A DNA stretch of 33,362 nt, taken from the IMG/VR virus record IMGVR_UViG_3300010345_001206. One strand, given 5' to 3'. The position numbers and the translations under genes were made by a program. The notes beneath the pieces are model-generated. The model made no database searches, had not been told where the DNA came from, and saw only the letters and a list, made by a program, of their open reading frames with translations. Shown here piece after piece: positions 7,985 to 33,115 of the stretch; the first letter of the stretch is position 1; each line of letters opens with the position of its first letter. The DNA is from a virus.

Positions 7985-8067
7985 ATATTACGTAGATTAA
8001 AAATATGAAATTTCATTTAGAATTTATTTGATATATATTATACACACATTATAATAAAAGTTTAATT

Positions 8068-9114
8068 ATGGAAGACAAATTTATTTGTAAAGAATGCGGG
8101 GAAAAGTTTAATTGTCCCGAAAATTTAGGAAAACATGTAATATCTCATGGATTATCTAATAAAGAATATTATGATAGATGGTTAAAAAAAGAGGGGGAGG
8201 GGGTTTGTTCTATCTGCGGAACAAATACTCCGTTTGTTCATATGGGGAAAGGATATAGAAGATATTGCTCTAAAAAATGTTCAGCTATTGGTGTGGGTAT
8301 TAAAAATAAAAAAGGATTTAAAATAAAAAGAGAAAAAATTAAAGAATCTTATGAATTTGAATGTCAAGAATGTCATGAAAAATTCAAAACATCCACAAAA
8401 TTAAATAATCATATTACTAAGATTCATGGGTTAAAATATTATTATGATAAGTGGTTAAAAAAAGAAGATGAAGAAATTTGTAAAATCTGTGGAAAACTAA
8501 CAGAATTTTATAATAGAATAGATTTAGGCTATAGAAAATGTTGTTCCAAGGAATGTGCTAAAAAATATCAATTAAATCAGAGATCCAAGACTAATTTAAT
8601 AAAATACGGGGTTGAAAATGTTTTTCAATCAAAAGAAATTCAACAAAAAATTAAGGATAGCTGTTTAGAAAAATATGGTGTTGAAAATAATATGCAATCC
8701 GAATTAGGAAGATCCGAGTTTAAATCTTCCATGAATAAAAAATATGGTGTAGATTGGCCTACACAAAATAAGGAATCCCTAGAAAAAGGTCAAAAATCTG
8801 CAAGGAAAATGAAAAGGTTTAGAAATACGGATTTATGGTATCAGGGAACTTATGAATTAGATTTTTTGGAAAGATATTATGATAAATATCGAGATATTCA
8901 GAGAGGGCCTTCAATTAAATATGAACATAAAGGAAATAGTAAAATTTATCATCCGGATTTTTATATCCCTTCTTTAAATCTAATCATTGAGATAAAAAGC
9001 AGTTGGATATTAAAAAGGGATATAGAATATAGCGAAAAGAAAAAAGCCACTATTTCTAGTGGCTTTAAGTATCTTATGATACTGGATAAGAATTATCCAT
9101 TAGCTATACCATAA
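8068..9114 (+). mobile_element. Free-standing homing-endonuclease-like gene: duplicated zinc-finger module, KYGVEN repeats, C-terminal PD-(D/E)xK nuclease
   Basis: Two copies of C2H2 + CxxC..CSxxC module; KYGVENVFQS/KYGVENNMQS/KYGVDW repeats; QGTYE..YHPDFYIP..IIEIKS nuclease motif. The only credible plus-strand gene. Confidence 0.75.
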
Positions 9115-9815
9115 TTTATTAAAATATTATACGATAATACAAAATTTTCTATTTCCTCCATTGTTATATTTTTCTTTGGCTTGTGCTTAATCTTATTTAA
9201 AAATTGTCGGGATTTATTTAGCTTGTTTTTTTCTTCCGCGGTCATTTGTTTAAAATTCATTAATTCACTTAAGACTGTTTCAAATTCAATATTATGACCT
9301 TTATTTTTAATCAAATTATAATTATTGGCTATCATTCTAATGGACCCCTCAAAAGCTGCTAAGTGACAATATATGTTAAACATATATAAATCCCCCAACT
9401 TTAAATTTTTTTCGTCCTTATCTATAATACTACCGTATTCATTATAACATTCTTTTAAAAATTTTTTCACTGCGGGGGTAATTGCAGTTCTTACTGCAAA
9501 ATCGCAATCATTGTTTTTTTGGAGAAATGGAGTATCCAAAGAATTTTTTATTTCTAGAGAATCTAAATCTATCGAAAGTAAAGGACTTTGAGAAATATTC
9601 CCCATTAATTTGTAAAATTCATCATAATCTCCATGTCTAATTGCAGCAAATTCTTTAGAAAATTTTCTAATGGGTTTATTTCTCATTACCATTAGCATAT
9701 ATCCTATAGTATAATTTACCCAATAGCATCTATCGTCATAAGGAAGATCCCAATACCCTCTAGCAAAAGACCCGTTTGGCCCGATTTTTCCTAATATTTC
9801 GTTTAAGTTTGTCAT
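9093..9815 (-). CDS. Hypothetical protein, possibly with a degenerate HEPN-like C-terminal domain
   Basis: 240-aa ORF. C-terminal helical region AAFEGSIR...LNKSRQFLNKIKH. Confidence 0.6.
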   Translation of the reverse strand: MTNLNEILGKIGPNGSFARGYWDLPYDDRCYWVNYTIGYMLMVMRNKPIRKFSKEFAAIRHGDYDEFYKLMGNISQSPLLSIDLDSLEIKNSLDTPFLQKNNDCDFAVRTAITPAVKKFLKECYNEYGSIIDKDEKNLKLGDLYMFNIYCHLAAFEGSIRMIANNYNLIKNKGHNIEFETVLSELMNFKQMTAEEKNKLNKSRQFLNKIKHKPKKNITMEEIENFVLSYNILINYGIANG

Positions 9816-9851
9816 AGTAACTTATACTATTTAAATTTGTAAAGTTTTGTT

Positions 9852-9875
9852 AAAAAATAAGGGGCCGAAACCCCC
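9852..9875 (-). terminator. Rho-independent terminator with UUCG loop
   Basis: Minus strand GGGGGT-TTCG-GCCCC followed by TTATTTTTT. Confidence 0.85.
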
Positions 9876-9876
9876 T

Positions 9877-9890
9877 AATATAACCTTGTG
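9877..9890. repeat. Left arm of a perfect 14-bp inverted repeat (AATATAACCTTGTG)
   Basis: Exact reverse complement of 10828-10841. Confidence 0.9.
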
Positions 9891-9902
9891 TTTAAAAATT
9901 AA

Positions 9903-10742
9903 TTATTCATATTTGGTGCCGCAGATTGGGCAAAATTTATGTGTGTTTCTTTTTTGTTTAGCTCCACATTTTGTGCAAAAGACCTTAACATCTTTACTCA
10001 TAAGGGGCTTTTGAGATTCAGGAAGAATCTGCCAGCTTGTTCTCCATGTATACCAAGTATTAAAATTGGTATTATCATAGACGAATGATTGATTAGAATC
10101 CGATCCCCTTTCAATCCTGCCTGTTTCCTTAAACTCCTTAGGTGGTTCAGGGGCTTTAAATTCCCCTGCATTGTCAGCACAGCAATAACTTAAATTTTGT
10201 AAATCAGCATTATGAGAGCCGATTTTTAAATCTGCATTAACCCCAGAAGTTAAAGTGTGAGCTACCCCCTTTGTATTGGAGGTTGATGTGTAAAAAATAT
10301 GAGGCTGTTGCCATACATTTGGATTTTGATACCAATCCGAACTACCATAAGTTACAGTCCATCCACTTACGTTTTTGAATTCTTCATGGAATTCTACTGA
10401 TACAAGTCCATTTTGGCGAATAGCAGCTTCTACGTTGGGATTTCCCGTTTCAACCTCATAAGTTTCGAATTTGAATCTTTTAGCTTCATCAAGGTATCTT
10501 TCCAGAAAAACTCTTTCGCCTGGTCTCAAAATGATACCGGAGCCTAGATTCTTTCCATTAAGACTGATTTTTGCTAAAACTTTTTCGGAAGTTGGATTAA
10601 AGAGTTCTATTTCAAACTCGTCTCCATTTTTTAGATAAACAGAGCCATTTCCATGACCGCTGAACTGTTTTACTCGTTGTCTACCTTTGGTGACAAATGC
10701 TGTGGGAACAGTAACCCTTTGGGTGTAGTAATTTACTGTCAT
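9903..10742 (-). CDS. Conserved-looking hypothetical protein: beta-rich N-terminal domain and C-terminal double zinc ribbon
   Basis: FEIELFNPT..ISLNGK..LRPGERVFLER..NGLVSVEFHEE; C-terminal FCTKCG..FCPICG. Confidence 0.85.
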   Translation of the reverse strand: MTVNYYTQRVTVPTAFVTKGRQRVKQFSGHGNGSVYLKNGDEFEIELFNPTSEKVLAKISLNGKNLGSGIILRPGERVFLERYLDEAKRFKFETYEVETGNPNVEAAIRQNGLVSVEFHEEFKNVSGWTVTYGSSDWYQNPNVWQQPHIFYTSTSNTKGVAHTLTSGVNADLKIGSHNADLQNLSYCCADNAGEFKAPEPPKEFKETGRIERGSDSNQSFVYDNTNFNTWYTWRTSWQILPESQKPLMSKDVKVFCTKCGAKQKRNTHKFCPICGTKYE

Positions 10743-10763
10743 ACCTTACGTTATTTTAGTATA

Positions 10764-10825
10764 TGAGTGTTTATTTGTTGGCCTTTCCTCCAACTCTAAT
10801 GTCCAAAATAGACACTAAACCCTCA
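10764..10825 (-). ncRNA. Predicted structured 5' leader (three-way junction)
   Basis: P1 TGAGGGTTTA/TAAACACTCA (9 of 10 pairs), P2 GTGTCTA-TTT-TGGACAT, P3 GTTGG-AGGAAAGG-CCAAC. Folded by hand only. Confidence 0.5.
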
Positions 10826-10827
10826 AT

Positions 10828-10841
10828 CACAAGGTTATATT
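10828..10841. repeat. Right arm of a perfect 14-bp inverted repeat (CACAAGGTTATATT)
   Basis: Exact reverse complement of 9877-9890. Confidence 0.9.
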
Positions 10842-10843
10842 TT

Positions 10844-10851
10844 TATATATC
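10844..10851 (-). promoter_or_regulatory. Late-promoter-like GATATATA just outside the right inverted repeat
   Basis: Variant of the NATAAATA motif. GATATATA also occurs on the plus strand at 8030-8037, upstream of the endonuclease. Confidence 0.4.
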
Positions 10852-10871
10852 TCCAAAGTAAAAAAGTTTTG

Positions 10872-11156
10872 CTATTTTATCATATCTTTTTTGAAATTGA
10901 TAAAGAAAAAGTTTTTTGTAATAAAACCATTTTCTACTTTTACTAGGAAAACAATTTCATAATTTGGAGTTAATTTTTTTTCGCAAAAATGGGTATAAAG
11001 AATATTATGAAGTCTCTGAAGTTCTGAGTCAATAACAATATCTCCTTCAATATACATTTCATGGCCGCATGAACATGTAGTATTGAACCCATTATCCCTA
11101 AGAAGCTTTACAATATCCCGAATGGGTTCCTCTATATTTTCTTCATACCAATTCAT
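10872..11156 (-). CDS. Hypothetical protein (NGFNTTCSCGH motif)
   Basis: ATG at 11156 preferred over the TTG at 11174; closely packed with neighbours. Confidence 0.7.
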   Translation of the reverse strand: MNWYEENIEEPIRDIVKLLRDNGFNTTCSCGHEMYIEGDIVIDSELQRLHNILYTHFCEKKLTPNYEIVFLVKVENGFITKNFFFINFKKDMIK

Positions 11157-11427
11157 CCAGATTCCTTCTAACAAAGTTTTCAGCTATCCTGGGTCCAAGA
11201 GTATTATGGCACATATCTTTTGCTTCTATATAAGGAAGGAAGCATCGTTTACCATTTATCTCTAAAACAATACCCTGATTTGCCATAGGATCAAATCCCA
11301 TTGAAGGAAACATTGATGGGGGAGGAGGCAAAATTATTCTTTCAGCTTTTTGTACTCCCTCAACGTCTCTTATTTTATAAAGAGCTATTGCAACGACGTT
11401 TTCGTCTATTTCTTCAAAACTAAACAT
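11143..11427 (-). CDS. Hypothetical protein
   Basis: 94-aa ORF in operon-like packing. Confidence 0.65.
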   Translation of the reverse strand: MFSFEEIDENVVAIALYKIRDVEGVQKAERIILPPPPSMFPSMGFDPMANQGIVLEINGKRCFLPYIEAKDMCHNTLGPRIAENFVRRNLDELV

Positions 11428-11430
11428 TTA

Positions 11431-11754
11431 TTATTCTTTATTTTTTTGGAGATCCTTAAACATTGTTCCGCAATCTTGGCAAGTATAATAAGCATCCTCT
11501 ATCCAGGATCTATATCCTGGGCCTATAATTCCATTACTATCTCGTCTTTCGAAATATTTTTTATTTTTGGATTTACAGGAAGGGCATTTTAAATCGGCAA
11601 TTCTTCTTTCCTCTTTTTCCCGAGCTTTTTGTTCCTCTTCCCTTTTCCTTTTTTCAGCTTCCTTCATGCTTCGATGAATTTCCTCCCAATCAACATTTTT
11701 AGTGATTATTCCTCGTTCTCGGAGTTGTTCTTCGGCGGATTTGATTTTTCCCAT
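11431..11754 (-). CDS. Zinc-ribbon protein with N-terminal charged helix
   Basis: CPSC...YTCQDCG. Confidence 0.7.
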   Translation of the reverse strand: MGKIKSAEEQLRERGIITKNVDWEEIHRSMKEAEKRKREEEQKAREKEERRIADLKCPSCKSKNKKYFERRDSNGIIGPGYRSWIEDAYYTCQDCGTMFKDLQKNKE

Positions 11755-11861
11755 TCTTCTTTTCTTTTAGATTCTTCTTCAGGATCAAAATAGAGCCAAC
11801 CCCCAAATTGATCTAATTCTTCATCTCTGAATTCCGGTTTTTTTGCAATTGCTTTTCTCAT
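11706..11861 (-). CDS. Possible 51-aa hypothetical protein
   Basis: ATGA overlap with the stop of 11858-12316; reads MRKAIAKKPEFRDEELDQFGGWLYFDPEEE; fills the gap. Confidence 0.4.
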   Translation of the reverse strand: MRKAIAKKPEFRDEELDQFGGWLYFDPEEESKRKEEWEKSNPPKNNSENEE

Positions 11862-12316
11862 TTTAAACTATTTAAAATTTGAACTGATAAATCTTCCAAT
11901 GAATAAGCTATTTCTATTTCAGGTCTAGCTAATTTAGTTTGGATAAGAACATCCTGCTGTCTTTCATATTTTTCATCCATGCCAACAAATAAAGCTCGGT
12001 GGCTTGAGTTTCCCCACATTCCAAGTTCATAAAGAACTATGGGATTTAATGAACCACGAGAAAACCAGAAGACAAGAATATCAACATCCTTAAGATTATT
12101 ATATTCCCAAGTTATCTGTTCTTCAGCCGCATTTGGATCGTGGATAGGAAAGTTTGCTCTCCTCGGATTATACATAACTAAATCTGGGGTATCCTTCAAT
12201 AGTTCAATTAGTTCTTTCTGCCAATCTGGACAATTGGTTATACCGCCACCAAGAAAAAGAGACATTTCATTTTCTTTAGGGGTATAGAGTTTTGGTGCTT
12301 CTATTATTTTTGCCAT
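11858..12316 (-). CDS. Nucleoside 2-deoxyribosyltransferase-like protein (Nuc_deoxyri_tr2 type)
   Basis: LFLGGGI..DWQ..NPRR..QITWE..L..VDILVFWF..PIVLYELG. Confidence 0.85.
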   Translation of the reverse strand: MAKIIEAPKLYTPKENEMSLFLGGGITNCPDWQKELIELLKDTPDLVMYNPRRANFPIHDPNAAEEQITWEYNNLKDVDILVFWFSRGSLNPIVLYELGMWGNSSHRALFVGMDEKYERQQDVLIQTKLARPEIEIAYSLEDLSVQILNSLK

Positions 12317-12317
12317 A

Positions 12318-12512
12318 TTATAAAGATATTCCGGTATCTGAATTAGACAGACAAATATTTATCCAACGGGGAAATAATAAACCATGGGATAAAAATATTT
12401 GTCTAATTGTTATTTTTTCCATCCAAACCCAATATCCATTGAATCTCATTGGATACCATGCAAACGTTGAATGATAGCGATAATCTCCGTCTTTCGGAGT
12501 TTCTTTTTTCAT
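12318..12512 (-). CDS. Small aromatic-rich hypothetical protein
   Basis: 64-aa ORF, FAWYPMRFNGYWVWME. Confidence 0.6.
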   Translation of the reverse strand: MKKETPKDGDYRYHSTFAWYPMRFNGYWVWMEKITIRQIFLSHGLLFPRWINICLSNSDTGISL

Positions 12513-12515
12513 AAT

Positions 12516-12782
12516 TTACCAATCTAAGGTTTTCGAATCAATGCAAGCCATTCCAAAATTGCATGCAACTGATATATCTAATAATTCTTGTTTAATTTTT
12601 TCTTTATCCCCTTCTTTTATAGCTTCAATAAGTTCCTGATACTCTTCAGCTACTACTCCAAGAATTTCATGAGTTGAAGATAAGGAATGCCATCCCTTTT
12701 GATTTAACCTATAAATAATTTTATTATAAGTTTCTTCAGTGCTTTTTTTAATAGCCGGTTCTGTGATATTATTTCTTTTCAT
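12516..12782 (-). CDS. MazG-like all-alpha NTP pyrophosphohydrolase
   Basis: VAEEYQEL..IKQELLDISVAC gives the ExxE..ExxD metal-binding pattern. Confidence 0.7.
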   Translation of the reverse strand: MKRNNITEPAIKKSTEETYNKIIYRLNQKGWHSLSSTHEILGVVAEEYQELIEAIKEGDKEKIKQELLDISVACNFGMACIDSKTLDW

Positions 12783-12869
12783 TATTTTTCTTTTTTCGAA
12801 TATTTCTTATCGCCTCCCTTGCCTTAGCAAATTGTTCAGGGGAAATCTTTGGAAAATTTTTACTGCCTT

Positions 12870-13256
12870 TCATTTTTTATTCCTTATCATTTTATCTTCA
12901 TAAATAACAGCCCATGCACGATTCTTATAGAATTCAAATGGCTGATCCTCATTTTCGAATCTAGCATCCATTTCATAAAGGATATACAGGGGTTCTTTCA
13001 GAGATTTTGCAACATCCATCAAATTAAAAGTATCCAAATCCAGATCCAAATCCCCAAACCACACTTTTCCCCGGGATTCGGTAACTATATTTGCATTGAA
13101 TATAACAAAATGATCCGGAAATCTGTCTCTATATCCACTTTTAGATCCAGAAATCATCCTCCCCATTACAAATCCATGGGATGCAAATAATTTGTAAATA
13201 TCCCCATCAGATCTAAATTCCGTAGGAAACTGATAATAAGAATTTTGAACGTCCAT
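12870..13256 (-). CDS. Hypothetical protein
   Basis: 128-aa ORF whose start overlaps the gp47 stop. Confidence 0.75.
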   Translation of the reverse strand: MDVQNSYYQFPTEFRSDGDIYKLFASHGFVMGRMISGSKSGYRDRFPDHFVIFNANIVTESRGKVWFGDLDLDLDTFNLMDVAKSLKEPLYILYEMDARFENEDQPFEFYKNRAWAVIYEDKMIRNKK

Positions 13257-14446: not shown

Positions 14447-14866
14447 TTATTTTCCTAGAGCAAATTTTTTACGCCATTCAGTATATCTTTTTCGACCTTT
14501 TTCATAAAGATCGTAAAGTTCCTGATATGTTACTTCAACAGTTTCGGCATCCTGTAAATTGAGCAAATATTTATTCCCCTGTTTTTCAACGGATTCAATT
14601 TCAAAGGAATCCCCCTCATCCTGTAATTTATTGAAATCTATCCCTAACTTAAAAGAGATTAATTCATCCATATCGCAAGGATCAATCTCTAATTCCTCAA
14701 TAGTTTCCCAGTCATCTTCCCCTGTCATTATACGGGTTACAAGCTTGTAACCCCCGGTCATTATTTCCAGGTCTGTTTCTTCTGGCATGGATTCTTCATT
14801 CCAAGGAGCTCGATGGTCATATTCTGCTCCCGGAGGATAATTTTCAAGGATTTTCTTAGCTCTCAT
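14447..14866 (-). CDS. Acidic hypothetical protein with MRAKKILEN leader, candidate internal virion protein
   Basis: MRAKKILENYPPGAEYDHRAPWNE; AATAAATA at 14871-14878; has its own terminator. Confidence 0.75.
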   Translation of the reverse strand: MRAKKILENYPPGAEYDHRAPWNEESMPEETDLEIMTGGYKLVTRIMTGEDDWETIEELEIDPCDMDELISFKLGIDFNKLQDEGDSFEIESVEKQGNKYLLNLQDAETVEVTYQELYDLYEKGRKRYTEWRKKFALGK

Positions 14867-18709: not shown

Positions 18710-19243
18710 TTATAACCCGAGTTCTCCGCCTCCTTCCTCGGGCTGTTCTTCGGCTGGCTTCTCTGTCTTTTCCTCTTTTTCTTCCCCTATTTCGTCAAGG
18801 ATAGGTTTTAGCCTCCAAAATATTCTCTGAGCTGCTTTGTCTTTCAAAATAAAACCAGCCCAGTCGATCTCTTTTTTATCTGGTTCTATTGCATCCTGAG
18901 CAATCTCGGTTGAAGGTTTAACGATAAAATAATATACTCGCTTATACACTTTTCCGGATTTATCCTCATAATCAATATAATGAGGCTCTGTATCTTTTAT
19001 ATCTTTAGGATCGATATTTATACCAATTTCTTCGCGGGTTTCTCTTATAGCTGCTTCTAAAAGGTCTTCTCCTTTTTCAACTTGTCCTTTTGGAATACTA
19101 AATGTTCCCCACCATTTTTGACCTGTTGGGTGTCCAAGAAGAATACTGCCATTTTGAATAATGGCTAATCCAGCGGATAATTCGATAGGATCATCCAATT
19201 CTTGCTCAAACAGTTTTTCTCGAACTAATTTCATCTTTAGCAA
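18710..19243 (-). CDS. Nudix hydrolase with LVRE/LFE leader
   Basis: Nudix box GQVEKGEDLLEAAIRETREEIG; N-terminus MKLVREKLFE; acidic tail. Confidence 0.9.
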   Translation of the reverse strand: MLKMKLVREKLFEQELDDPIELSAGLAIIQNGSILLGHPTGQKWWGTFSIPKGQVEKGEDLLEAAIRETREEIGINIDPKDIKDTEPHYIDYEDKSGKVYKRVYYFIVKPSTEIAQDAIEPDKKEIDWAGFILKDKAAQRIFWRLKPILDEIGEEKEEKTEKPAEEQPEEGGGELGL

Positions 19244-22198: not shown

Positions 22199-23050
22199 TT
22201 ATTCGGGGTTTTTTGATAAGGCAATTGAATCCTGGACTGGAAATTTCTCCAGCCCTGATTCTAATCTATCATAATAAATTTGAGGAGTTAGGATTTCTTT
22301 ATAAGATGGAGGTTTATTTCTAATTATAACTGCCATTCCATATTTAATACCATATCTTTGAATAATAGGTTCCACGAAGCTTAAAGCATATTCATATTTT
22401 ACTTTTGAAATATTATTAGGATCTTTTATTTCTTCTATTGATTTAGGCTTAAATTCTCTTTTATCCCTAATACATTCTCCCATATTAAAAGTCATATACT
22501 CGCAGAATCCTTCTTCCATAAATTCAGCTCCGAATCCATATTCATGGCTGGGGACATAAACAATATTATTATATTCCGATGATACTATAAAACCCATCAT
22601 CTTCATTTCTCGAAGTACCTGGTTAAAATAGCAATGATAAATTTCATGAATAAGAACTCCTTTTACAAATTTATCATCATAAGTTAGGTTTTTCTTCTTG
22701 AAATTAGGAGTACTTTTTAATTCATATCCTACATATCTTTCTTCTGTAGTTAAAATAATTTCTCCTGGGATATAAGTTCTCCCCAGTTCTAAAGAATCAT
22801 GAGACATATATTCTCTTAAATCGTCCGAATAAATTTCTATATCATAGATAGGTTCATTAATAAAAAGCTGAACTTCATCAATGATATGATACTTGTTTTC
22901 AGTAATATAATTTGAAATGCCTACACTAGTTGGTTTGCCCTCTTTATTTCTGGGATAATCTTGAGAGCATTGAGTAAAAGAAACGACAATTAAAAAAACT
23001 AATAGAAGTATCTTTTTCAAGATTACCATGTATCTTTTTGATTCTTCCAA
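22199..23050 (-). CDS. Putative lipoprotein/secreted zinc metallopeptidase (gluzincin-like)
   Basis: Basic N-terminus, hydrophobic segment, then FTQC lipobox-like Cys; HEIYH (HExxH) and downstream EEGFCEY. Confidence 0.7.
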   Translation of the reverse strand: MEESKRYMVILKKILLLVFLIVVSFTQCSQDYPRNKEGKPTSVGISNYITENKYHIIDEVQLFINEPIYDIEIYSDDLREYMSHDSLELGRTYIPGEIILTTEERYVGYELKSTPNFKKKNLTYDDKFVKGVLIHEIYHCYFNQVLREMKMMGFIVSSEYNNIVYVPSHEYGFGAEFMEEGFCEYMTFNMGECIRDKREFKPKSIEEIKDPNNISKVKYEYALSFVEPIIQRYGIKYGMAVIIRNKPPSYKEILTPQIYYDRLESGLEKFPVQDSIALSKNPE

Positions 23051-23466
23051 TCACTAAATTCTTCTTTTCCCCCTCTGACTGACCAATCAGAATCGATAGT
23101 TAATTTGGAGGAAAATCCGCCACGTACATTAAATTCCATTGTAATTCTTAATCTTGATGGCTGATAAACTTCCATAAGGTGGGAATAAACAGTGTTAATT
23201 AATCTCTCATAAGAAATAATCATATCCCTATATTGATAAAAGTATTTTTTAAGGGATTTTAATTCAATAACTTTTTCTTTAGCATAAAAATCAATATAAA
23301 CGACACCAAAATCTGGTTGTTCATCTACTCCAAGAAAAGTTATCTCAGTTCCTTTTATTCTGTTTTCGTAGGCACTCTGGTCCGGATTGGGTAAGCTTCT
23401 AAGGACGCTTTTATCCGCAGATTGCCAGAATTTTTTTGTTTTTTTATCGGTTGTCGCCTGATCCAT
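23023..23466 (-). CDS. queF: QueF-like T-fold protein lacking the catalytic cysteine
   Basis: QPDFG, QueF motif ELKSLKKYF, YER, RGG. The position of the catalytic Cys is Gly (TFLGVDEQPDF). Confidence 0.8.
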   Translation of the reverse strand: MDQATTDKKTKKFWQSADKSVLRSLPNPDQSAYENRIKGTEITFLGVDEQPDFGVVYIDFYAKEKVIELKSLKKYFYQYRDMIISYERLINTVYSHLMEVYQPSRLRITMEFNVRGGFSSKLTIDSDWSVRGGKEEFSDWKNQKDTW

Positions 23467-25718: not shown

Positions 25719-26144
25719 TTAAGTAATTCTAGTAATTTGGGAAATCTTATCCAGATTACCTGTAAATGAAAACATATAGGGTTCCATTTTTTCCCATAAA
25801 GATCCTGGTAGATAACCTAAAGATTCTCCATTTATTGTCTGGAGTGATTTCACAAGAACCAATTTTTTAAATCTTGGTTCCGTTTTCATTAAGTGGAGAG
25901 CGGTTAACAAGCTCATATAGGTTTTTCCGGTTCCCGCCGGACCTGTTGAAATAACAACGTCCTTTTCCTCTATAGCTTGTTTTAAGTCTTTTTGCTTTTT
26001 GTTTTTACATTTAACTTCAATTTTTAAATCGTTTAGCCTAATTTTATCTGATTCGTAGAAGGATGCTTTTCTTTGTGATGAGATCTCTTCATATATGCTT
26101 ACATCCTCGATCTCCTCCGGGGTTAAATTCTTTTTCCTCGCCAA
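25719..26144 (-). pseudogene. phoH: Truncated PhoH-like ATPase (N-terminal half only)
   Basis: KCKNKKQ, Walker A GPAGTGKT, LGYLPG..EKMEPY. Stops at 141 aa with no RGR or DEAQN motifs. Confidence 0.75.
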
Positions 26145-31216: not shown

Positions 31217-31632
31217 ATTGTGGATAATTGAAATGCGTTTATAAAGAAGGGTATTTCTTTTCTATCGCAAAAAAGAAAAAGATAATAATTTTTTTGATCT
31301 TCGGATTCAGAAAAACCAATTTCAAGAATATATTCTCCTTCTTGTGGTTTCCCGTCGGATTTTTTAAATCCTCTTCTATCAATAAAAACAAAATGAGAAT
31401 TATCTTTTAATTTCTCTAAAATAGTATCAAAAGACATATTGATTGGTTTTCTCGAAAAAGAAACCGCGGCATCTAATATATCTACGTGAAATCCTATTTT
31501 TCGTTCATAAGCCATTTTTAGTAGTCTTTTCTTTTGTTCAAGAGATAAATTTTGAACATTAAAAAAGACATCCGGCTCATATTCCGGAAGATCATTTACT
31601 AATCCTATCATTCCTGGTTTTGGATGGCTCAT
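31213..31632 (-). CDS. Hypothetical protein
   Basis: 139-aa ORF with ATGA coupling. Confidence 0.7.
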   Translation of the reverse strand: MSHPKPGMIGLVNDLPEYEPDVFFNVQNLSLEQKKRLLKMAYERKIGFHVDILDAAVSFSRKPINMSFDTILEKLKDNSHFVFIDRRGFKKSDGKPQEGEYILEIGFSESEDQKNYYLFLFCDRKEIPFFINAFQLSTI

Positions 31633-32284
31633 TTTTTCCCTTTTTATGCTCTTCGATTTTTTCTTTTATTTCTTCTTGCTGCTTCTGATTTTCATGCTCT
31701 TTTCTCTTTACCTCATCGTGTTTTTTCCTTTTCTCCTCTTTTTCTTTACGCTTAATTTCAATTTCTTTAAGTTTTCGAGGATTGACCATATAATGATTTT
31801 TAGCTTGAAGTTCTGTTCTAACTTTCATTAAAACCTTGCCGAGGAGATTTTGGCCTTTCCAATTACTTTCATCAAGGATAGCATCATCTTTTTCGTGTAT
31901 ACCAACCCCCCAAATAATATCCACGGGGCTTGCTTCAACAAGAGTTTTAGTATCAGTTTCCATTAATTGTTTGGTTAAAACCCGATCGCTTTCAAATTTA
32001 GCTTTAACAGCTGCATACATAGCATCAAATCTTGACGATGACCAAGCTTCTTCATTATACCCAGAAACCTCTCTTCCTAATTTTTTAGCTATGGCCGGAT
32101 TAGATCCTAATTTAACTATTTCTTTGGCCTTATCTTCATCACCAAAGAACTTAGCCTTAATATACATGAAAATTTGTTCGGAATTAGTAAATAATTCACC
32201 ATCATAATAAATTTTCAAGTTGCTTGGCGTCCAATTAGACATCCAATTGGTCCAAAAATAGATATGGGTTTCAGTTTCTCTCAT
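31592..32284 (-). CDS. NADAR (YbiA-like) N-glycosidase family protein with charged tail
   Basis: FW..SNW, SEQIFM..KA..FGD, KKLGREV, AKF, LVEASP-D-IWGVG, GQNLLGKVLMKVR. Start set at ATG 32284 (ATGA coupling). Confidence 0.92.
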   Translation of the reverse strand: MRETETHIYFWTNWMSNWTPSNLKIYYDGELFTNSEQIFMYIKAKFFGDEDKAKEIVKLGSNPAIAKKLGREVSGYNEEAWSSSRFDAMYAAVKAKFESDRVLTKQLMETDTKTLVEASPVDIIWGVGIHEKDDAILDESNWKGQNLLGKVLMKVRTELQAKNHYMVNPRKLKEIEIKRKEKEEKRKKHDEVKRKEHENQKQQEEIKEKIEEHKKGKNEPSKTRNDRISK

Positions 32285-32571
32285 CCTAATTCTAATTTTT
32301 TTATTAAATCTATGGGACAAAGAACTTTTGTATTTTCCCCCTTGTTTCCAAAGGACCCAATCATTTCTGCAGAAACCACTATTTTTTTAATGGCTTCATC
32401 CTGACAATTATCCGATAGAATGCTAATAATTCCCACAACCCCTAATTCATTATTTTCCTCATAATGATCAAATATTCCAGCACCCTCAGAGCTTATAACA
32501 TTATCTCCATGTACAAACCCATATTTCGAGAAATATTTTTCTTCTAACTCCTTATTCTTATTTGTGAACAT
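32281..32571 (-). CDS. Hypothetical protein
   Basis: 96-aa ORF. Confidence 0.65.
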   Translation of the reverse strand: MFTNKNKELEEKYFSKYGFVHGDNVISSEGAGIFDHYEENNELGVVGIISILSDNCQDEAIKKIVVSAEMIGSFGNKGENTKVLCPIDLIKKLELG

Positions 32572-32740: not shown

Positions 32741-33115
32741 TCAAAATAACGGATGTATGTTTATCTTTTCATCATCATCACCTGGTTTCCATTCAGGAAC
32801 TTCAATGCCAAGATTTTCTTCAAGCCATGAAGCTACGATTCTCCTATGACAAAATTCCCCCGGAGCTTCCCAACATAAAAGAACCTGGCCTCTTAGAGTT
32901 TCATAAACCTCCCGAGGATTGAGTTTTTTAAGAACCTGTTCTCGATACTGCCTCTCATATTCTTTGTCGTCAATTTGATCTGCTTTTCTTGCAAAGAATA
33001 AAGGGCGAGGAGGTTCTAAAGCAGGGAACTGAGCCCCGAACCAATCCAAAGGAGGATATAAACAAATAGCAACTCCTTGATCCCCTTTATATATTTTGAA
33101 ATTACTCGTTTTCAT
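32741..33115 (-). CDS. DUF488-like protein
   Basis: MKTSNF, LEPP, YERQYREQVL, LLCWEAPGEFCHRRIVASWL. Confidence 0.75.
   Translation of the reverse strand: MKTSNFKIYKGDQGVAICLYPPLDWFGAQFPALEPPRPLFFARKADQIDDKEYERQYREQVLKKLNPREVYETLRGQVLLCWEAPGEFCHRRIVASWLEENLGIEVPEWKPGDDDEKINIHPLF

Follow-up and report, generated by a model that had tools for sequence, protein, structure and literature searches.

The 33,362-nucleotide (nt) viral DNA stretch IMGVR_UViG_3300010345_001206 (hereafter the window) carries on its minus strand a gene for a 279-amino-acid (aa) protein that is bracketed by a perfect 14-bp inverted repeat, one arm following a promoter-like box and the other preceding an intrinsic terminator. 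We conclude that the two arms form a conserved RNA helix between the message's untranslated regions (UTRs) at its 5′ and its 3′ end, that this helix is joined to an unclassified structured leader, and that the unit is not an invertible or mobile piece of DNA. The evidence for the structure is strong, since the arms stay complementary across homologous loci while their sequence changes; its function we infer. The minus-strand order of box, arms, leader, open reading frame (ORF) and terminator described in the initial annotation was found in full (positions are those of the window; the unit is read on the minus strand):

10842..10849, minus strand: promoter-like box TATATAAA, from sequence; read as GATATATA at 10851-10844, then AA; abuts the 5′ arm
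10841-10828, minus strand: 5′ arm AATATAACCTTGTG, forming a perfect 14-bp inverted repeat with the 3′ arm
10835-10829, minus strand: core of the 5′ arm, A-CCTTGT, invariant across the main family
Between the 5′ arm and the ATG at 10742, minus strand: leader of 85 nt, from sequence
10764..10825, minus strand: three-way-junction leader, outer stem 10825-10816 with 10773-10764
10815-10811 with 10803-10799, minus strand: leader hairpin 1, from pair counting on 50 leaders
10794-10790 with 10781-10777, minus strand: leader hairpin 2, from pair counting on 50 leaders
10743..10763, minus strand: A-rich linker with GUAAGGU immediately 5′ of the ATG; UAAGG conserved in the main family
10742-9903, minus strand: ORF of 279 aa with TAA at 9905-9903; predicted Ig-like beta-sandwich, disordered insert and zinc ribbon
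9890-9877, minus strand: 3′ arm CACAAGGTTATATT, 12 nt past the stop codon, adjoining the terminator stem
9848..9877, minus strand: intrinsic terminator, from sequence; hairpin 9877-9858 with UUCG-type loop, then a T-run

The inverted repeat reaches 17 bp if one mismatch is allowed, and the gap between the 5′ arm and the Y-shaped leader is 0–2 nt.

Conservation and covariation of the end helix

Homologous loci (17, then 80) were taken from IMG/VR, and counts were made on distinct loci (72 or 70). The best ungapped helix was sought between the region 70–135 nt 5′ of the ATG and the first 90 nt past the stop codon; RNAduplex applied to the entire flanks gave over-long, uninformative duplexes, and position-anchored ungapped helices were therefore used. 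A helix of 9–20 bp (mostly 12–15 bp) was present at the same two positions in 65 of 72 loci, with proteins only 40–60% identical. In these 65 loci the 5′ strand of the helix lay at −92 to −109 from the ATG, and the 3′ strand started 5–20 nt past the stop codon, save in L030 and L026 (40 and 47 nt). The 3′ core began 8–19 nt past the stop codon in 69/70 loci, and a terminator (hairpin plus T-run) followed 3–17 nt 3′ of this core, likewise in 69/70.

The invariant core (A-CCTTGT with ACAAGG-T) served as the anchor for aligning the arms, and its first C was the origin of the position numbers. Compensatory changes were observed at six or more helix positions, with pair counts as follows:

Position −4: G-C in 18 loci, A-U in 13, U-A in 9
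Position −3: A-U in 33 loci, U-A in 14
Position −2: A-U in 31 loci, G-C in 27
Position +6: G-C in 36 loci, U-A in 17
Position +7: G·U in 31 loci, A-U in 12, G-C in 5

Pairing was conserved from −4 to +10 and fell to the background level outside that range. Among the 38 distinct arm pairs of the main family, 88% of the cells were paired, compared to 30–45% when the partner strand was slid by 1–3 columns, and the covariation score (0.237 vs 0.105 in column shuffles) was reached by none of 1000 shuffles.

Entirely different arms were found elsewhere among the relatives. L024 (LR756502) has TTTATAGCTGTTCG with CGAACAGCTATAAA at −98 and +9, and L021 (LR756500) has TCTCACTTTGTT with AACAAAGTGAGA at −87 and +20. 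A scan seeded with the L024 protein yielded a second subfamily with the arm core AGCTGTT, in which compensatory variants also occur (..GTTCGCT with AGTGAAC.., ..GTTAT with ATAAC.. and ..GTTCAA with TTGAAC..). The paired fraction of this subfamily was 0.886, and its covariation score was reached by 0/1000 shuffles. The wobble pairs moreover have a strand preference: 38 G·U pairs were counted among 43 distinct helices, all of which would be C·A mismatches on the opposite strand, and between positions −2 and +7 there were 35 G·U or U·G cells vs 7 A·C or C·A cells. A blastn search of GenBank phages with the locus gave no match.

The initial annotation had offered a comparison of homologues as a way to tell a recombinase site, with its fixed sequence, from RNA pairing. 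Flanking complementarity proved to be kept while the arm sequence varies, by covariation and by wholesale replacement of the arms in subfamilies. Because a fixed site would have kept its sequence, these results argue that the arms are an RNA helix and not a site for a protein or a recombinase.

Significance of the repeat within the window

A perfect match of at least 14 bp between the two intergenic flanks of the gene (129 and 87 nt) arose in 3 of 5000 dinucleotide shuffles, so that the shuffle test called for by the initial annotation gave a result in favour of the repeat that is marginal when taken alone. The single 14-bp match is by itself only marginally significant because two further perfect 14-bp inverted repeats (within 3 kb) are present in the window and about 45 window genes are open to such inspection. 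The repeat is nevertheless real, as the helix is kept at the same two places in the great majority of homologous loci (65/72, above). As had been noticed at the outset, the other genes of the window have nothing comparable: no other exact repeat of ≥12 bp has its arms in both intergenic flanks of one gene, and beyond the two arms the window holds no additional copy of the arm motif with <3 mismatches. A perfect 20-nt palindrome (GGGTTACAAGCTTGTAACCC) lies at 14734-14753, within the ORF 14447..14866.

Folding of the message and its leader

The helix was predicted to close the 988-nt RNA of the window in the minimum-energy fold as well as in the centroid one (z-score −5.2), with the terminator hairpin stacked beside the end helix. 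In diverse full-length relatives, the predicted pair probability of the helix core was ≥0.75 in 12 of 13 and ≥0.98 in 11.

The leader between the 5′ arm and the start codon has a conserved fold of its own. Its pairs were counted on the structure named from the window sequence, as RNAalifold on a MAFFT alignment of mixed subfamilies gave none (registers differ). The count covered 50 leaders drawn from the two subfamilies, and changes on both sides were seen in 15 of 18 pairs; 82.5% of the cells were paired vs 36–48% in slid registers, and the score was reached by 0/500 shuffles. The main family also conserves bases at the junction, namely UUGA between the two hairpins and a GAAU/AAAU-type linker past the second hairpin. 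A search of 9700-11000 with Rfam cmscan at E values up to 10 returned only sub-threshold chance matches (best 25 bits vs a gathering threshold of 55), none of them on the leader, and a hammerhead-like core looked for by eye at the junction did not fit. One relative, L122, keeps the leader and has lost the helix, so the two are separable modules and the leader can work alone; Lak phages are probably a similar case. Helix and leader fold are real and under selection.

Of the 8 full-length closed folds that were modelled, 7 left the ribosome site (−15 to +5) 0.6–0.8 unpaired, compared to 0.40–0.45 for the ORF. In modelled nascent RNAs lacking the tail the site was 0.44–0.83 unpaired, mostly ≥0.6, and with the tail 0.41–0.80. 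The ribosome site is thus predicted to be open with or without the tail.

Promoter-like box, transcript start and expression

A box of the pattern TATA[TCA][ATC][AT][AT], sought ≤28 nt 5′ of the helix core, was found in 59/70 loci, and between its end and the first C of the core there are mostly 7–9 nt. As the same box stands 5′ of only a few other window genes, it can be called a promoter only tentatively. By analogy with T4-late-like or −10-like geometry, transcription would start near 10836 ± 2, within positions −2 to −4. A purine occupies position −2 in 58 of 59 loci, and this position is paired in 98%; if a start near 10836 is right, the first RNA nucleotide would itself be base-paired. 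The message is probably a single-gene (monocistronic) one. In the second subfamily (L106-L121), a TATATATA box occurs 3′ of the unit's terminator and 5–8 nt before the next ATG, so that a box of the same kind may drive these downstream genes, whose messages would be leaderless or nearly so.

Six metatranscriptome runs hold 53–69% of the sampled words of 9700-11000. The gene is present in contigs from four RNA libraries of four studies, which show presence only, not ends, levels, circles or an absence of inversion, and these contain no joints. In three of the libraries the contigs lie mainly over the ORF (9889-10706, 9961-10706 and 10010-10695); neither the uncovered part nor the shared break at 10706 is to be read as a result.

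A motif resembling a Shine-Dalgarno (SD) sequence was found in only 6 of 43 minus-strand window ORFs (within 22 nt 5′), the leaders being A/T-rich. This scarcity fits SD-independent initiation as in Bacteroidota, and the UAAGG before the focal ATG is accordingly an exception in the window.

The encoded protein and its neighbourhood

The 279-aa protein has at least 2531 relatives, none of them named, some of which come from Lak megaphages and from the LR7565xx huge phages. It belongs to a phage-only family of unnamed members to which no search assigned a function. Pfam and PHROGs found only the zinc ribbon; Foldseek against the PDB gave nothing at E <0.001, and the VIA wide structure search gave generic Ig-like sandwiches only (Z ≤6.8). 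BFVD matched proteins without a name, from phages and from large DNA viruses, and the matches in the ESM Atlas were phage hypotheticals only. The protein model (mean predicted local distance difference test score 71.5) suggests an Ig-like beta-sandwich formed by residues 14–121 and 204–241, a disordered insert at 131–191 and a C-terminal zinc ribbon.

The window has ~33% GC, with nearly all genes on the minus strand, and represents a phage replication/recombination module encoding SbcC-like and SbcD-like nucleases, a UvsX-like recombinase, a DnaB-like helicase, a DNA polymerase and a topoisomerase II. Auxiliary genes are QueF-like (7-deazaguanine pathway), NADAR-domain, short PhoH-like, NUDIX and DUF488-N3a genes (23023-23466, 31592-32320, 25719-26144, 18710-19243 and 32741-33115). 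In the relative L001 the unit sits between the SbcD-side block and SbcC, directly before SbcC. Identity between L001 and the window is 82% for SbcC, 87% for SbcD and 60% for the focal protein, which by this comparison evolves far more quickly than the products next to it, chiefly in its disordered insert. In the window, the unit and SbcC are separated by a homing-endonuclease-like gene (8068-9114, plus strand; two C2H2 fingers and DUF7487, PHROG homing endonuclease) and a 240-aa ORF of no known family (9093-9815, minus strand). As the L001 unit is directly followed by SbcC, these two look like an insertion.

Favoured and alternative explanations

The initial annotation had left two readings side by side, a DNA inversion switch and a long-range pairing that closes the mRNA. 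The second of these is the one borne out here, by the covariation, the sense-strand G·U pairs, the replacement of arms at a fixed position and the helix predicted by full-length folding in 12/13 loci, and we hold it very highly probable that the RNA helix is real and under selection. On this explanation, transcription would start just past the TATATAAA box, near 10836, and the first RNA bases (..AACCUUGUG..) would pair with CACAAGGUU.., 12 nt past the stop codon and directly before the terminator hairpin. With the conserved Y-shaped leader following the 5′ arm, a single stacked rod would hold both ends of the message, and between them the coding region would form a loop of roughly 0.9 kb, its ribosome site open. 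The helix would then protect the 5′ end and the 3′ UTR from end-dependent and endonucleolytic RNases, and, on the model of the Bacillus subtilis hbs mRNA (see below), the protection would give a long-lived, translatable message. End protection or stabilisation appears to be the most economical role, because the ribosome site is predicted to be open whether or not the tail is present; we put the chances that this is the main role at about even, and consider the explanation as a whole, a closed single-gene mRNA with protected ends, somewhat probable.

Several observations weigh against this explanation. The transcript ends come from prediction, the RNA data being assembled contigs, which cannot show ends. 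If transcription did start near 10836, the RNA would hold only about 9–11 of the 14 bp, and beyond position −4 the family does not conserve the pairing. An RNA-library contig (10547-10861) covers the box and reaches 20 nt upstream of the 5′ arm, so that read-through or carried-over DNA exists. The core ACCUUGU is invariant in the main family, beyond what pairing explains. L122 has no 3′ arm, its terminator lying directly past the stop codon, and yet retains the three-way-junction leader (L122:1380-1500). No convincing end helix was found in Lak phages, LR756504, LR756508 or LR756501, a result that is not evidence of absence given their AT-rich flanks and the dependence of the Lak ORF ends on the genetic code.

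A further partner that recognises sequence, e.g., a protein, is suggested by the invariant core and by the junction bases that are conserved. Both exceed the needs of pairing, as would be expected if helix and Y-leader were a recognised shape, a protein-binding platform serving for instance autoregulation by the encoded protein; the zinc ribbon of the product and the retention of the leader where the end helix is lost (L122) point the same way. RNA binding by this protein is purely conjectural, however, and its predicted fold is a generic Ig-like sandwich without an informative match. We regard the platform as distinctly improbable; it would be compatible with stabilisation. The constant distance of 8–19 nt from stop codon to helix may leave room for coupling to translation termination. 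A dedicated closed-loop device made up of helix and leader, as opposed to a passive stabiliser, in which the stop codon is held by an open, SD-less landing zone and terminating ribosomes are returned to the start, or which offers a platform for the encoded zinc-ribbon protein, is in our judgement unlikely; if true, no earlier case of a conserved closed-loop unit for translation or feedback would be known from a bacterial virus. The invariant core could also be explained by a switch unlocked by the tail, in which the 5′ arm (ACCUUGUG) first masks the UAAGG by the start codon and is then displaced by the stronger 3′ arm, so that only complete mRNAs are translated. The main-family arm is indeed complementary to the pre-ATG region (−6.6 vs −2.6 ± 1.45 kcal/mol for shuffled windows), and UAAGG is conserved in a window where so few genes have an SD-like motif (6/43). 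The second subfamily lacks this signal (−3.4 vs −3.0), however, and the pairing probability of the arm with the ribosome site is only 0–0.33 in modelled nascent transcripts, the site being equally open without the tail. Such a switch is likewise distinctly improbable. A lock of the hok/aapA1 type, with the end-paired full-length mRNA as an inert store until its 3′ end is trimmed, has a precedent in the 11-bp end-pairing that acts so in aapA1, and similarly in hok (PMC5416894). The gene here encodes 279 aa in conserved SbcC/SbcD synteny and not a small toxin, its ribosome site is predicted to be open in the closed form, and no antisense RNA gene is evident (a promoter scan of 8000-13000 gave 24 sites vs 23.3 ± 4.9 in shuffles), which makes the lock highly improbable. 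Neither the lock nor the tail-unlocked switch is supported, as the predicted folds leave the ribosome site accessible whether the tail is there or not.

The remaining explanations concern RNA cleavage and DNA rearrangement. The helix, stacked on the leader stem, might be a processing stem cut by RNase III or a phage nuclease, perhaps followed by ligation into a circle. The geometry resembles that of ribosomal RNA (rRNA) processing stems, and no terminator lies between the upstream gene and the box, so that read-through precursors are possible. Helices of 9–20 bp, mostly 12–15 bp, are short for RNase III, whose stems measure about two helical turns (stacking on the leader could lengthen them), though; the RNA contigs contain no joint or back-splice, which is a weak test, and nearly all loci have their own promoter-like box and terminator. 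We consider processing very unlikely. A DNA element, either an invertible segment or a mobile cassette with terminal inverted repeats, would account for a perfect 14-bp inverted repeat around a whole gene, and a homing-endonuclease-like gene lies 0.8 kb off. The inversion switch considered in the initial annotation did not survive the comparison: all 70 distinct loci have one orientation (0/70 flipped), the terminator being downstream in 69/70 and the box upstream in 59/70. No recombinase had been seen in the window at first, and indeed a scan of 38 window ORFs showed no site-specific (serine or tyrosine) recombinase or transposase family; invertons occur in both orientations with a recombinase nearby. 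The arms covary, with strand-specific wobbles, unlike a fixed protein site. Elements of the miniature inverted-repeat transposable element or insertion sequence type have multiple copies, variable context and target-site duplications. Here the motif occurs at only two places in the window, the two arms; synteny next to SbcC/SbcD is kept in L001 (neighbours 82–87% identical), and the bases flanking the arms on the outside (AAAA, AGGG) form no direct repeat. Each of the 14 DNA runs in which the stretch is listed contains 93–100% of its sampled words, which span both arm junctions. The chance that the unit is a DNA element is close to negligible.

Comparison with known systems

Only a handful of bacterial-type mRNAs are known to pair their ends (hbs, icaR-like UTR contacts and the hok/aapA toxins), mostly through genetics in single species. 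The unit described here is a 0.9-kb message closed by a helix that has co-evolved across dozens of very large environmental phages, in a family of at least 2531 members, and this natural covariation argues with unusual strength for selection of closed mRNAs. The compact, testable arrangement (box, 5′ arm, Y-leader, ORF, 3′ arm, terminator) could show how mRNA life and yield depend on burial of the 5′ end, on the structure of the leader and on pairing close to the terminator in non-SD hosts, and it is a candidate stabilising cassette for expression work. It also draws attention to a phage protein, abundant and unnamed, whose gene lies beside those of the SbcCD recombination nuclease. The initial annotation knew of no described system of this kind for the gene family. 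As a general statement this was too strong, mRNA end-pairing being known in hbs (PMC5737220) and hok/aapA1 (PMC5416894); none was found for this gene family or for phages, and the literature searched on huge or jumbo phages contained nothing relevant to such a feature.

Short inverted repeats around a segment next to a promoter are shared with Bacteroidota invertons. Those need a nearby site-specific recombinase and occur both ways, whereas neither was seen here and the arms evolve as an RNA helix. The processing stems of rRNA operons likewise pair sequences that flank a long functional RNA over a long range; they are cut and, at more than 20 bp, are longer than the helices found here, mostly of 12–15 bp.

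In aapA1 of Helicobacter pylori, an 11-bp pairing of the 5′ and 3′ ends produces an inert storage form, and hok of plasmid R1 behaves similarly (PMC5416894; also PMC6733600). As in these messages, the extreme 5′ end of the phage RNA would be paired with the 3′ end of the full-length message, and covariation supports the pairing in the toxin family too. The toxin messages are 150–400 nt long, encode small toxic peptides, have an antisense partner and hide the ribosome site until 3′ trimming. The phage unit, in contrast, has a 279-aa ORF and a modelled open ribosome site, and no antisense RNA was seen.

In the hbs mRNA of B. subtilis, a 14-nt segment of the structured leader pairs with a segment immediately 5′ of the terminator, which limits the action of RNase Y and RNase J1 (PMC5737220), and compensatory mutants restored wild-type behaviour, which proved the interaction in vivo (Braun, Durand and Condon 2017, PMC5737220). 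The two systems are unrelated in sequence, and the phage window genes lack SD motifs (any in 6/43). The 5′ strand of the phage helix is predicted at the very first RNA bases, whereas that of hbs lies behind two leader hairpins. The phage evidence is comparative (covariation, ~65 loci) and that for hbs genetic, the effect on decay having been shown in hbs only. Both systems nevertheless have a helix of ~14 bp that connects a structured 5′ UTR with a segment just 5′ of an intrinsic terminator in a short single-gene message; in the phage unit, too, the arms lie in the UTRs, the 3′ one just 5′ of the terminator, and compensatory change is present as natural covariation in place of mutants.

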